Part shown: piece by piece, positions 49,199 through 61,981 of the stretch | How the letters are laid out: each line of letters opens with the position of its first letter | Position numbering within the stretch: position 1 is the stretch's first letter | Source: a bacterium | Lineage (GTDB): Bacteria > Bdellovibrionota_C > UBA2361 > RFPC01 | Direction: 5' to 3' | Assembly: GCA_030428205.1 (NCBI GenBank) | Contig: JAUIBK010000007.1 | Span: forward strand, 46,749 to 110,748 | Length of the DNA: 64,000 bases | Made by a program: the position numbers and the translations under genes | Notes under the pieces: generated by a model | Databases searched by the model: none | What the model was told of the DNA's origin: nothing | What the model saw: the letters and a program-made list of their open reading frames with translations, nothing else

Positions 49199-49422
49199 CT
49201 AGTGTTCCGACAACAAAGTTTTTTCACCTAACGGGGAGGAACACTTTTTCGCCGAATGGCGAAAACCCCCGCCCATCTTCGCCAAGGCTACGACGTGGTC
49301 CTTAGAGCTTAAGTCACGACGAAGCTCGAAGAGCGTAGTCGGAGAGGGACAATACAGCTGGCTAGTGTCACTTCAAAATAGGGTTTTCACGAAGTGAAAA
49401 AACTTTTTTGAAGTGACACTAG
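49199..49422 (+). mobile_element. Composite palindromic element type X, copy 1 (carries cassette B2)
   Basis: Three hairpins plus a 78-nt cassette at 49272-49349; homologous to 57043-57241 in reverse orientation. Confidence 0.65.
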
Positions 49423-49659
49423 TACAGCGGCGCAAACTAAATTTCTACGCATATACTACAGGAAGATGATACGCTGTACTATTCTGCCGGAGGCAGAACC
49501 CCCGGAGGGAAGATACAGTTTTCTAGTGCACTGTTATGCCACCAAAATTCATATGCACAAAAACATAGTTTACAGTGTACTAGTTGATGATGCAAATCTG
49601 CTGTGGTTCTACCCTCCCTCTATGGTAAACAAAGGAGAGGAAAAAGAGAGGAGGATTTT

Positions 49660-52600
49660 ATGAAACGTATTCTTGTAGCAAATCGAGGTGAAATTGCTAT
49701 TCGCATTTTACGTGCAGCCTCCGAGCTTGGATTACGTACCATTGCGCTCTATACGTATGAAGATCGCTATTCTCTCCACCGTTATAAAGCAGACGAAGCA
49801 TATCTTATTGGCAACAAAGATGAACCGCTTGCGCCCTACCTCAATATTGAGAAGATCATAAAACTTTCAATCAGGCACAAGATTGACGCCATTCATCCCG
49901 GCTACGGCTTTCTCTCTGAAAATGTTGATTTTGTCAGGCGCTGCGAGGAAGCTGGGATTACCTTTATTGGCCCCACTTCAAAGGTTATGCAAGAACTTGG
50001 CGACAAGGTGCGCAGCAAAGCCATCGCACGCCAAAGTGGTGTGCCAGTTATCGAAGATAGCCAAGTCGATCTCAGTGACATAAACACTTCAAAGAAAGAA
50101 GCAAAACGGATTGGGTATCCCGTGATGGTCAAAGCCACCGCTGGTGGTGGCGGTCGCGGTATGCGCGTAGTGCGAAACGAGTCTGAGCTCGAAGGTGCAC
50201 TTGTTGAAGCCAAAGGAGAAGCTCTGCGATCCTTTGGAGACGACACCATCTTTCTTGAAAAATACATCGAAAATCCTAAACATATTGAAGTGCAAATTCT
50301 CGGTGATAACGAAGGAAATCTCGTACACCTCTTTGAACGAGACTGTTCAGTTCAGCGCAGGTTTCAAAAAGTTGTCGAAGTTGCTCCTAGCCCATCTCTA
50401 TCACAAGAAACAAAAGAAAAGCTCTATGCGTACGCCCTCCAGATTGGAAACCACGTTCACTATAACAACGCAGGAACGGTGGAGTTTCTTGTGGATACAG
50501 AGGAGAATCCCTACTTTATTGAGGTGAATCCTCGCATACAGGTAGAACACACCGTCACCGAAGAAGTAACTGGAGTTGACCTTGTACGTTCACAGATTCT
50601 CATCGCTGGGGGACATACGCTTGCCCATCCAAGTATTAACATCCCCAAGCAAGACTCTCTTTCATGCGAAGGATTTGCTATTCAGTGCCGTATAACAACC
50701 GAAGATCCAAAGAAAGATTTCCACCCTGACTTCGGAAAAATCATCGCCTACCGTAGTCCAGGCGGTTTTGGTATCCGGCTCGATGCAGGAAGCGCCTACG
50801 CTGGAGCGGTCATCTCTCCCTACTTTGACTCTCTGCTTGTAAAAGTCACAGCCTCAGGAAGAACATTAGATGGTGCCTGTGAACGTCTTATTCGTGCACT
50901 ACAGGAGTTTCGAATCCGCGGAGTAATGACAAACGCTTCGTTTCTCGAAAATGTTCTCGAACACGATGTGTTTCGAAAAGGCAACGCAACGGTTGGGTTT
51001 ATTGAAAACCATCCTGAGCTGCTTGAGTCAAAGCGTCGCAGAAATAGAGCTACGAAAGTACTTACCTACTTGGCCGAAGTTGCTGTCAATGGAAATCCAG
51101 ATGTAAAAGCTGTTGATACGTCTCGAACGTTTCGTACACCTACTGTTCCTTGCTTTGATGCTTACGGAGAATACCCATCAGGAACAAAGCAAAAGCTCAG
51201 CGATTTAGGCCCTGAGAAATTCTCTCACTGGCTACGCGAATCCAAAGCAATTCAATATACAGACACCACTTTTCGAGATGCTCACCAATCTCTGCTTGCT
51301 ACCAGGTTTCGTACCATCGACATGCTCCAAGTAGCAGAAAGCTACGCAAAAAACCACCCTGAGATCTTCTCCTTAGAGGTATGGGGCGGTGCTACTTTTG
51401 ATGTCGCTATGCGCTTTTTGCATGAGTGTCCCTGGGAGCGCTTGCAGCTTATACGCGAAGCTGTTCCCAATATTCTTCTCCAAATGCTTCTACGTGGATC
51501 AAATGCAGTTGGATACACTGCCTATCCTGATAACCTGATCGTCTCCTTCATTGAGCAAGCGTGGAAAACAGGGATTGATATCTTTCGGATTTTTGATTCC
51601 CTCAACTGGCTCCCTGCAATGGAAACAAGTATCAAAACGGTACGCGAACGCACAGAGGCACTCGCAGAGGTATGCATCTGTTATACAGGAGATATCTGCG
51701 ACAAGAGTCGAACGAAGTTCACCCTCGAGTATTATCTTGATCTCGCAAAACGGATTGAAGACGCAGGAGCTCATATCTTATGCATCAAAGATATGGCGGG
51801 ACTTCTGAAACCAAATGGAAGTACTCTTCTTATCTCAGAGCTACGTCAAGCCCTTTCGATTCCTGTTCATCTTCATACGCACGACACCTCCTCGGTACAA
51901 GCGGCCACATATCTCAATGCCATTGAGGCTGGGGTTGATGTGATTGACGTGGCCCTTGCTTCAATGTCAGGCTTGACTTCTCAACCCAACTTCAATTCGA
52001 TTGCTTCAATGCTACAAGGGCACGATCGAGAGCTTCCTCTCGATGTGCACTCCCTCAATAGCTTCTCAAACTATTTTGAAATTATCCGAGAGTTCTACTA
52101 CCCCTTTGAATCAGGGCTAAAAGCTGGAACAGCCCAAGTGTATGAACACGAGATTCCAGGCGGACAATATTCAAATCTTGGACCACAAGCTCGTGGCTTG
52201 GGACTTGAAGATCGCTTCGAAGACATTAAGAAAAACTACCGTGAAGTAAACGACCTCTTAGGAGATGTTATTAAGGTAACACCCTCTTCAAAAGTTGTCG
52301 GCGATCTCGCTATGTACCTCACCTCAAACAATCTCACAGTCAAAGACATCAAAGAACGCCCGGACGAACTCTCATTTCCAGACTCTCTTAAGAGCCTCAT
52401 GAGAGGAGATCTCGGCCAAGCTTATGGCGGGTTTCCTGAGTGGCTGCAACTGGCAGTGCTTAAAGGCGATAAACCATATACCACCCGACCAAATGAGAAC
52501 ATGGAGCCAGTTGATCTCGATGGAGATTACAAGTCATTTATCGATACATTTGGCAAAGAATGCTCTTACCTTGATTTTCTCTCTTACAAACTCTATCCGA

Positions 52601-60868: not shown

Positions 60869-61684
60869 TTACGTAAGTAAATCGTCGAGATTTTCCCAGA
60901 GCCTATGCCACTGACGATCGTCGCTCTTTGGGAGGCACCCTTCCGCCAACTCCCAAAGAGCGACAGCTCTCCAGCTCAGATTGCTTGAGCTTGGTTTTGC
61001 TGCGGCATGCGTTAACGTATCATCAAAAAGACAAAAAGAGCCTGGTTGTAAAACTCTGTGAGTATGCTCCTTGCTCGCAAAGCTTCCTGCATCTTCAAAA
61101 GTAGCATTAAGAAATCGATTCTCATTAATACCATCGAGAACACACCGGGTCCCATCACCCATAAGGTTCCAGACTCCAGTTAGGGGAGCGCTGTCTCTAT
61201 GATACGTGGCATACGATGTATCCTTTATCTGATTTAATCTAAAGATAAAGTGAACATCACCATTGGGAAAAAGTTCATCCCAGGCACTATTGAGCACAAC
61301 AAGAGATTGTATAAATCGCTCCCTCACGGCAACATCTTCCGCGCTAAAGAAAGAGAGAGGAAACGCTCTATCAAGGAGTGGTCTTATCGCTTCAGGAGAC
61401 AGCTCGTAAGCACCAAAGCAAAGGACACCACTTTGGCTCTCAGCATGGTAAGGATCTTGGAACAATGCCCCGCTCCTTTTAATGAATCGAGCAAACATCT
61501 GTTCATATGAAGAAACACCGAGAGGGGCTTCAACGTAGTGCGTATCAGCATCTAGGATGAGTGGCATATCACGTAGACTTGAGCAGACCAAAGCACCGCC
61601 GGGAAGAGCAGAGAATGCACCAGGCAATACAGGAGATTCTTCACGCGTTAGCTGAGACTCTATGTGGTGTACATCGATAGCCAT
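60869..61684 (-). CDS. Hypothetical protein, possible 2OG-Fe(II)/DUF1826-like fold
   Basis: YHRD ... MGDGT ... FDDTLTHA. Confidence 0.45.
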   Translation of the reverse strand: MAIDVHHIESQLTREESPVLPGAFSALPGGALVCSSLRDMPLILDADTHYVEAPLGVSSYEQMFARFIKRSGALFQDPYHAESQSGVLCFGAYELSPEAIRPLLDRAFPLSFFSAEDVAVRERFIQSLVVLNSAWDELFPNGDVHFIFRLNQIKDTSYATYHRDSAPLTGVWNLMGDGTRCVLDGINENRFLNATFEDAGSFASKEHTHRVLQPGSFCLFDDTLTHAAAKPSSSNLSWRAVALWELAEGCLPKSDDRQWHRLWENLDDLLT

Positions 61685-61740
61685 ACGAACACCTCATTGT
61701 AGAGCAGTTAATGCACTACTCAACTCCTCTACAACGTTTT

Positions 61741-61981
61741 ATACTCCCCGCACTTGAAAATACCGGCACAAGAAGTACCGAGAGCGGGGAGTATCCCCCG
61801 CCCGTCTTCGCCAAAGGCTACGACGTGGTCCTTAAGAGCTCAGGTCACGACGAAGCTCGAAGAGCGTAGTCGGAGAGGGACAACACATACCCCCCGCCAG
61901 AAAGCGAGAAGACCCGATCAGGGTCTTTCCACGAGAAGTGCCGATGATCATCAGGCAAGGCATTTTCATTTGCGGGGGTAT
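61741..61981. mobile_element. Composite palindromic element type Y, copy 2 (cassette B2)
   Basis: Module A 61741-61794, cassette 61801-61880, module C to 61981. Confidence 0.65.

Follow-up and report, generated by a model that had tools for sequence, protein, structure and literature searches.

How do the same two short cassettes come to lie at one position inside larger non-coding elements? The question is raised by a 64,000-nt stretch of bacterial DNA (hereafter the window), positions 46,749 to 110,748 of contig JAUIBK010000007.1, that belongs to a metagenome-assembled genome (MAG) of the Bdellovibrionota_C lineage. The assembly (GCA_030428205.1, here G000; the window is C40:46749-110748 in our contig numbering) comprises 3.76 Mb in 81 contigs with 46.7% GC. 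An initial annotation had described a cassette B1 (53781-53835 on the plus strand and 57116-57170 on the minus strand) and a cassette B2 (49272-49349 and 61801-61880), each present once in a host element X and once in a host element Y. These coordinates and identities proved accurate: the two B2 copies are 94-95% identical with two 1-nt indels, and a repeat finder returned the B1 pair as an inverted repeat (arms 53775-53841 and 57110-57176, 67 nt, 96% complementary). We find that this two-by-two pattern is a small sample of a larger mosaic, and that the four loci probably belong to a family of mosaic repeat elements, non-coding and intergenic, that numbers roughly 80. Our reading of the family, to which we assign a probability of about 0.6, is that these are mosaic repeats resembling repetitive extragenic palindromes (REPs), bacterial interspersed mosaic elements (BIMEs) and BOX elements, which have received nested, site-specific insertions in the manner of small dispersed repeats (SDRs).

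The slot and its core

The elements share a plan consisting of a left hairpin module (often with a small GC hairpin), an 18-nt core and a right hairpin module. The slot that holds the cassettes is the centre of this core, which is invariant and reads CCCCCG^GAGGGA-MRAYAC (the caret marks the slot). A search of the whole assembly found 37 copies of the core 12-mer CCCCCGGAGGGA in which the slot is empty, and 25 copies of the exact 18-mer CCCCCGGAGGGA-MRAYAC. Set against our own estimate of about 0.5 occurrences of a random 12-mer in 7.5 Mb (both strands), the number of core 12-mers is far above chance; as a control, the 18-mer pattern read backwards gave no match in any genome searched. Empty copies have the same left and right hairpin modules as filled ones, with nothing separating CCCCCG from GAGGGA. 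Because empty elements read CCCCCG followed directly by GAGGGA, the latter hexamer is the right half of the host core. Thus, although all four cassettes in the window do lie between CCCCC(G/A) and CAA(T/C)AC, as had been claimed, GAGGGA is not the end of the cassette for which it had been taken. Without it, the inserts proper measure 49 nt (B1) and 72-74 nt (B2).

Across the genome, all 16 copies of B2 lie between CCCCC(G/A) and GAGGGA, as do at least 13 of the 17 copies of the B1 family. (Four B1 copies, at C30:8349, C77:36074, C77:36289 and C37:89900, are wholly or partly off the slot.) There is no target duplication at the inserts, the target CCCCC(G/A) is fixed, and B1 and B2 have no clear end hairpins or cleavage motif in common. 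Genome-wide copies and empty cores therefore agree with the proposal of one fixed slot in larger non-coding, otherwise unrelated hosts, and the idea that the cassettes have random flanks fails for B2 and for most B1 copies. Note that some repeat copies sit at contig ends (e.g. C74:1-47 and C56:84-163), such that all counts given here are lower bounds. The only exact core in the window is the empty one of an element, Z, that directly follows the first X element (Table 1). A third Y-like copy at 9.8 kb had been described as a host without a cassette; it turned out to consist of a right-type hairpin and a degenerate half-core, CCTGGGGAGGACAAAT, and to contain no empty site.

Combinations of left modules, cassettes and right modules

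We classified 66 clear elements by their parts. At least six left types (LX, LX2, LY, LZ, LW and L5) and at least four right types (RX, RY, R3 and R4) were distinguished, with four slot states: empty (38 elements), B1 family (13), B2 (12, the classification parser having caught 12 of the 16 B2 copies) and a third cassette type (3). The tabulation of host against cassette against empty site that the initial annotation had called for thus reveals combinations throughout the genome. B1 occurs in the host combinations LY-RY, LY-R3, LW-RX, LX-RX and LZ-RX, and B2 in LX-RX, LY-RY, LY-R3, LZ-R4, LZ-RX and LX2-R4. The location is intergenic for 60 of the 66 elements, and with respect to both neighbouring genes they are oriented without bias (15/15/16/13 over the four classes), which weighs against a function as a leader, a directional terminator or an element of untranslated regions. 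Within the window, the two Y hosts (53.7 and 61.8 kb) share 83% identity in the left hairpin and 90% in the right. The X hosts at 49.2 and 57.1 kb have the right hairpin family and the small hairpin in common (78-81% identity), but the stems of their outer left hairpins differ.

Averaged over the B2 copies, identity is 91% in the cassette and 60% in the flanks, and an identity of about 90% is retained by the cassettes in 42 pairs of B2 copies whose flanks are unrelated left and right. The flank that unrelated hosts share amounts to only 6 + 12 nt. Since nothing more is common to different host types, homologous exchange cannot transfer a cassette between them, and a site-directed process is needed. 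This argument bears directly on a rival explanation that we consider unlikely, namely that no insertion takes place and that the cassettes are passive in recombination or gene conversion among dispersed copies, with crossovers in the core or at CTAG at the hairpin borders. Such exchange would fit the finding that the B2 subtype is tied to the left module: LY is the only partner of subtype b (three copies) and LZ the only one of c1 (three copies), and a and c2 occur with LX-type left modules, while the right module varies inside a subtype. The fact that B2 subtypes track the left module and not the right argues that the pattern results in part from co-amplification and right-module exchange, beyond cassette swapping. 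Chimeras also exist, as on C66, where LX2-B2-CAATAC-AGCTGG is joined to an R4 hairpin at CTAGTG, and some right-module exchanges, this one included, lie at CTAG hairpin borders. Moreover, elements can stand head to tail (X1 and Z), and deletions between such neighbours could make new left/right pairs. However, stretches of 6 + 12 nt are too short for RecA-type exchange, and a reciprocal exchange among scattered copies would bring about chromosomal rearrangements. Recombination also leaves unexplained why the first cassette copy came to lie exactly at the centre of the core, and why a sister genus has a cassette of its own there (see below).

Table 1. Parts of the elements in the window, and RAYT-like genes elsewhere in the assembly (given as contig:positions).
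Feature	Position	Strand	Remark
Solitary RY-like hairpin with degenerate half-core	9780-9875	+	Not an empty slot
X1 left hairpin module LX	49199-49245	+	Stem covaries among 14 genome copies
X1 small GC hairpin TTTTCGCC-GAAT-GGCGAAAA	49246-49265	+	
X1 core left half (CCCCCG)	49266-49271	+	
B2 insert, subtype a	49272-49343	+	72 nt, in slot
X1 core right half (GAGGGACAATAC)	49344-49355	+	
X1 right hairpin module RX	49362-49422	+	Compensatory changes at 10/19 pairs
Z left hairpin LZ and small hairpin TTCTGCC-GGA-GGCAGAA	49420-49498	+	Abuts X1
Z intact, empty core CCCCCGGAGGGAAGATAC	49499-49516	+	
Z right hairpin module R4	49523-49583	+	
Y1 left hairpin LY	53721-53774	+	
Y1 core left half (CCCCCA)	53775-53780	+	
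B1 insert, form (1,1)	53781-53829	+	49 nt
Y1 core right half (GAGGGACAACAC)	53830-53841	+	
Y1 right hairpin RY	53842-53938	+	Like inverted LY plus extra inner hairpin with GATCA loop
X2 right hairpin RX	57043-57103	-	
X2 core right half	57110-57121	-	
B1 insert, form (1,1)	57122-57170	-	48/49 identical to the copy at 53781-53829
X2 core left half, small hairpin and left hairpin LW	57171-57240	-	
Y2 left hairpin LY	61741-61794	+	
Y2 core left half	61795-61800	+	
B2 insert, subtype b	61801-61874	+	74 nt
Y2 core right half	61875-61886	+	
Y2 right hairpin RY	61887-61981	+	
RAYT-like gene	C9:27023-27955		Outside window
RAYT-like gene	C10:4-357		Outside window
RAYT-like gene	C14:19422-20429		Outside window
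RAYT-like gene	C22:144028-144966		Outside window
RAYT-like gene	C53:1-540		Outside window
RAYT-like gene	C62:104573-105526		Outside window
RAYT-like gene	C62:292463-293419		Outside window
RAYT-like gene	C70:61391-62398		Outside window

The neighbours of the elements in the window are ordinary genes (pyruvate carboxylase, KatG, an arylsulfotransferase-like protein and hypothetical proteins). The two cores that carry B1 stand in opposite orientation, and the 3.3 kb between them contains four open reading frames (ORFs), none of which has a Pfam match. A composite transposon between the inverted B1 copies (53.8 to 57.1 kb) was considered and set aside, there being nothing transposase-like among these ORFs. 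The B2-bearing cores flank the B1-bearing pair from outside in direct orientation, with no sign that this nesting exceeds coincidence. The GATCA loop of the RY-type inner hairpin is kept on three different stems (53864-53882, 61909-61927 and 9801-9819). (GATC is a Dam-type site.)

Distribution of the core, anatomy of the cassettes and folding

The slot had been seen as a feature of two particular hosts; it is instead the centre of a core that reaches other genera, another family and other phyla. In searches of 91 genomes of the order and 124 of the phylum as defined in GTDB, the core was multi-copy only in G000 (25 copies), G006 (17), G003 (5) and G021 (8, from a different family). Clear single elements were found in G002, G033 and G035, and the core is present in 8 of 41 relatives. 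G004 and G005, which belong to the genus of G006 and G003, have no core. Both B1 and B2 are absent from the other genomes with multiple cores, i.e. G006, G003 and G021. G003, from the sister genus, has a different cassette in this slot, CCCCCG-CTGCGTGCAGGGCC...GGCCCGAAACGCTCCCC-RAAGGGA-AAACAC, the left arm of which is repeated up to three times. The core is far more widely spread than either B1 or B2 and, on this comparative evidence, would appear to be older.

A scan for the exact 18-mer across 185,579 species genomes found it in MAGs labelled Bdellovibrionales and also in other phyla. Two related Acidimicrobiales MAGs have eight core copies each, intergenic, often in tandem and behind a GC hairpin; those of one MAG are on a 2.47-Mb contig, and 58 relatives of the two MAGs are without the core. 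In a third Acidimicrobiia MAG the core adjoins tRNA genes, in a Zetaproteobacteria MAG it is multi-copy in a 36-nt tandem unit, and two metagenome contigs have the same arrangement. Between phyla only the core and a following AG(C) are common, and the surrounding hairpins differ fully in sequence and GC content, so that neither contamination nor recent transfer of whole elements accounts for the sharing. One evidently common locus in the two Acidimicrobiales species lies between a large protein gene and a gene for a 649-aa membrane protein, with near-identical flanking ORFs; it is intergenic and holds four core units in one species (G125, locus L054, 4492-4803) and two in the other (G124, L096, 3545-3697). 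Copy number thus changes between species. Head-to-tail arrays of small hairpin plus core, with periods of 36 nt (L091, the Zetaproteobacteria MAG, 180-330), 39 nt (L100, a metagenome contig) and 37 nt (L007, C15 of G006), suggest that the smallest unit of repetition extends from one slot to the following one.

Cores also lie a few bases from tRNA genes in L057 (1599-1704) and L092, both from the Acidimicrobiia MAG D_3_bin.12, and in L003 (G015). The core as written and the tRNA are on opposite strands, and the reverse complement of the core is therefore in the tRNA 3' trailer. Single matches in coding sequence (e.g. an ArgG motif, GVYETPGGTIL) occur at the number expected by chance and were discarded. 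Carriage by phage was likewise rejected; two matches to viral contigs are single copies that we read as chance. Protein-anchored scans of genome and metagenome contigs found no orthologous loci in other strains, and a literature search did not find the core sequence described as a bacterial repeat.

The cassettes are not simple units. B1 is layered, perhaps self-nested, and expandable, and relatives that have no core contain sub-units of both cassettes independently. The short form of B1, GCCTGCGACGAGC joined to TCAGCCGAGTC (24 nt, four copies), is form (0,0); longer forms are extended by n copies of GTTCGACTGAGC at the left and by m of TCACGCCGAAGTC at the right, each arm unit being 12/13 nt long and repeated 0 to 3 times. 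The (n,m) forms counted were (0,0) four times, (1,1) four times, (2,2) three times, (1,3) and (3,2). By direct reading, the two arm units are imperfectly complementary (TTCG with CGAA and TGAG with CTCA around a small internal loop). Forms (0,0), (1,1) and (2,2) are compatible with repeated entry of a 25-nt unit into GAGC^TCA, and also with tandem slippage, paired or per arm; forms (1,3) and (3,2) need slippage in addition to entry of the 25-nt unit.

Multiple copies of the inner B1 unit, with 90-100% identity over 30-50 nt, are found in 21 other genomes of the order. Most of these genomes are from another family, and all but G035, which has a single core, are without the core. There the unit occurs in other contexts, including one site that flanking sequence makes seemingly orthologous in two species. 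Similarly, G026 and G037 contain the left half of B2 as a 33-nt tandem unit, and G034 contains repeats of the right half. We take these occurrences to indicate that the sub-units of B1 and B2 are probably older than the composite cassettes. Long imperfect palindromes of hexamer-phased TTGACC/GGTCAA units were also noted in the window (24809-24905 and 49100-49180). In G000 the inner B1 unit is found inside arrays of the TTGACC/GGTCAA type (C30:8349-8393 and C77:36074-36312), and it thus enters more than one kind of palindrome.

The elements fold well. Folding of whole elements, compared with shuffled sequences, gave z = -6.2 for X and z = -5.0 for Y, and among genome copies compensatory double changes occur in RX (10 of 19 pairs) and LX (6 of 15 pairs), with the loop motifs fixed. 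The loop motifs of LX, AAAAAGTTTTTTCAC, and RX, GTGAAAAAACTTTTT, are reverse complements of each other. This relation, together with the resemblance of RY to an inverted LY, argues that the composite is an inverted pair of related hairpins around the core. The cassettes, which had been called palindromic, behave differently. The description overstates both: B2 by itself folds only modestly better than shuffled sequences (z = -2.0 and -1.0), and B1 no better (z = +0.4).

These properties also raise the possibility that we are dealing with structured-RNA genes or cis-elements, in which the hairpins are helices, the core a junction or binding site, and B1 and B2 optional helices at a permissive position. 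Covarying stems beside fixed loop motifs and core, and folds far better than those of shuffled sequences, are what such an RNA would show, and the RX stems, read on the plus strand, have 22 G.U against 3 A.C cells, which suggests that one strand folds. The core is kept across phyla where its surroundings change, and two Acidimicrobiia copies stand directly beside tRNA genes. On the other hand, G.T over A.C mismatches favour the plus strand in right modules and the minus strand in left modules; the opposed bias is weak evidence, from copies that are not independent, that each hairpin folds on its own strand, which it fits better than folding of one transcript. Promoter-like and terminator-like sites are no commoner in the elements than in shuffled sequences, and on neither strand does a T run follow the small hairpin, such that a promoter or terminator role was dropped. 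Rfam 15 matched rRNA and tRNA only; no match to an RNA family was obtained for the elements at the gathering threshold, and at E <= 1 they gave only generic hairpin matches to miRNA models. Other features that fit an RNA poorly are the random orientation to neighbouring genes, the patchy occurrence even inside one genus (17, 5, 0 and 0 copies in G006, G003, G004 and G005), the head-to-tail arrays with periods of about 36-39 nt and also longer units of >100 nt, the differing copy number at orthologous Acidimicrobiales loci, and the fact that B1 alone forms no stable helix. Taken together, the evidence weighs against modular RNA domains, and we judge them improbable.

Chance or an assembly artefact, with chimeric joins at repeats, seems next to impossible: it has in its favour the 81 contigs of the MAG and the copies at contig ends, and against it that all five window elements are inside one contig among ordinary genes, that the same junctions occur on >30 contigs and recur in independent MAGs of other studies, one on the 2.47-Mb contig, and that the reversed-pattern controls gave 0 matches.

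A candidate mode of insertion, and known systems

If the elements are mosaic repeats with site-specific insertions, the empty core would be the ancestral state, since this is the form common to other genera, another family and other phyla that are without B1 and B2. B1 and B2 would be secondary insertions exactly at the core centre, consisting of tiny non-autonomous DNA built from older 12-35-nt repeat units of this order, and may grow by tandem or self-nested duplication of both arms. After the rare entry of a cassette, the cassette and left module could have been amplified together and right modules exchanged, which would give the combinatorial table. Entry might occur through a sequence-specific cut-and-join at CCCCCG^GAGGGA, probably on a folded single strand and by an HUH or IS200/IS605-like reaction. 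Chemistry of this kind involves no target duplication, no terminal inverted repeats, a fixed target 5' of the insert and precise excision. An alternative would be an RNA-templated route, as proposed for cyanobacterial SDRs.

We looked for an enzyme that might mobilise the elements. Consistent with the initial annotation, there is no transposase in the window. In a self-comparison of the assembly, the only multi-copy genes were eight copies of a RAYT-like Y1 HUH gene (Table 1). In these proteins, of about 335 aa, a REP-transposase-like domain at the N terminus is joined to a long C-terminal extension; they match NF047646 with 70.7 bits, below the cut-off of 80, and their genes form two groups, a C14/C70 type and a C22/C62/C9 type, like insertion sequences (ISs), with conserved flanks. 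Of the eight, only the C70 copy has an RY fragment about 500 nt upstream. RAYT and IS110 genes linked to the elements had been suggested as something to look for; neither adjacency nor co-occurrence was found. RAYT was ruled out as mobiliser on both counts, and IS110 because it is absent from three core-rich genomes. No classical IS is a candidate either, there being no multi-copy gene besides the RAYT-like ones, with the limit that MAGs may drop IS copies. A bias for a replication strand like that of IS608 was present only weakly.

Several of these observations weigh against mosaic repeats with site-specific insertions. Mobility is deduced from comparative anatomy, and a core invariant across phyla next to covarying stems is also expected of a folded RNA or a protein-binding site. 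Our search found no mobilising enzyme for the elements. No core or element module lies beside any of the eight RAYT-like genes in G000, or any of the ten in G002, G003, G006 and G021; RAYT-like genes are present in 38 of the 41 relatives, with or without the core and in up to 22 copies per genome, and the core-bearing Acidimicrobiia genomes G125 and G126 have no RAYT match. IS110 (PF01548) is absent from G000, G003 and G021. Finally, orientation relative to local GC skew is 35:21 (Fisher p = 0.047), a weak bias; known IS200/IS605 elements have a much stronger one.

A further-reaching interpretation, which we regard as speculative and not very likely, is that the core and hairpin are the recognition and cleavage site of a sequence-specific nicking-joining enzyme acting on single-stranded DNA or RNA, and that the enzyme or its target has spread among Bdellovibrionota-like bacteria, Acidimicrobiia and Zetaproteobacteria. 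The core would then be an integron-like docking slot that captures, stacks and shuffles lineage-specific small repeats. If true, this would amount to a new class of minimal mobile DNA, one whose attachment site is conserved.

By analogy, the closest described phenomenon appears to be the SDRs of cyanobacteria. Elhai et al. are said to have described in 2008 eight such repeats (SDR1-8) in heterocyst-forming cyanobacteria, of which SDR5 reportedly occurs only inside the HIP1 octamer, and to have proposed an RNA intermediate. Both there and here, very small, near-identical non-coding units sit in a fixed short host motif (here CCCCCG^GAGGGA), inside hairpins like those of miniature inverted-repeat transposable elements and inside tandem short repeats; the SDRs nest within copies of themselves, and the same may hold here, in that the B1 forms (0,0), (1,1) and (2,2) would fit a 25-nt unit entering GAGC^TCA. 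The present elements differ in belonging to another phylum, with no sequence similarity, in having larger (24-85 nt) and composite inserts, and in a host motif that is an 18-nt core between hairpins, itself dispersed across phyla. The combinatorial left-by-slot-by-right table and the intergenic location are the architecture of enterobacterial BIMEs and REPs, i.e. intergenic mosaics of palindromic units in alternating orientation with few conserved linker motifs and several combinations. Unlike BIMEs and REPs, the hairpins here are 40-100 nt long (rather than about 35 nt) and lack a GTAG-type tetranucleotide, and the conserved part is the 18-nt linker between hairpins, not the palindrome; nor is an insertion slot with cassettes a BIME feature.

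BOX elements of Streptococcus pneumoniae have the structure boxA-boxB(n)-boxC and are thus likewise three-part modular repeats with an optional middle module that varies in number. There is no homology, and in the present elements the outer modules are also combinatorial and the middle piece enters a defined 12-nt site. The REPIN-RAYT system (Bertels and Rainey 2011, PMC3116915) resembles them in its inverted pairs of hairpin repeats, its expansion within genomes and its patchy distribution, and G000 encodes eight RAYT-like Y1 HUH proteins; here, however, the RAYT-like genes are not flanked by elements and are present independently of the core. IS200/IS605 'peel and paste' elements and the ORF-less palindrome-associated transposable elements (PATEs) are alike in lacking target duplication and terminal inverted repeats, in inserting directly 3' of a fixed short target and in leaving empty sites that look precisely restored, and may be alike in having hairpins near their ends. 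They are unlike the present elements in that no cognate TnpA was identified here, the strand bias here is weak, and the cassettes are far smaller than any described derivative.

To our knowledge, the movement and diversification of REPs, BIMEs, BOX elements and SDRs are largely unexplained, and we know of no mechanism or enzyme for SDR-type units of <100 nt. The present family offers a clean handle, with one fixed 12-nt entry point and 37 empty and about 35 filled copies in one genome. Together with the layered inserts, the sub-units of which are traceable to related genomes, and a core found across phyla, this makes the search for the activity a defined biochemical and comparative problem. 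The elements also matter for annotation: they fill a good deal of intergenic space, cause breaks in MAG assemblies and look like structured RNAs.

Another abundant repeat family, about 210 nt in length and present in at least 35 copies, in which a variant half-core, CCCTGGGGA-AGACAAAT, precedes a ATATACCCCGTG...CACGGGGTATAT hairpin, is probably a sister lineage of the core elements. It is found in the window at 9780-9875 and elsewhere in G000 at C70:60620-60840, C7:30456-30665, C62:314403-314557 and C81:21855-22028. The window also contains two further small palindromic repeat families with units of the CGCGAAG type and of the GCAAAGA/CGCTAAGA type (21472-21539 and 37302-37395; 14307-14345 and 35385-35468), and one of these families interrupts a B1 copy at C65:30527 of G000.

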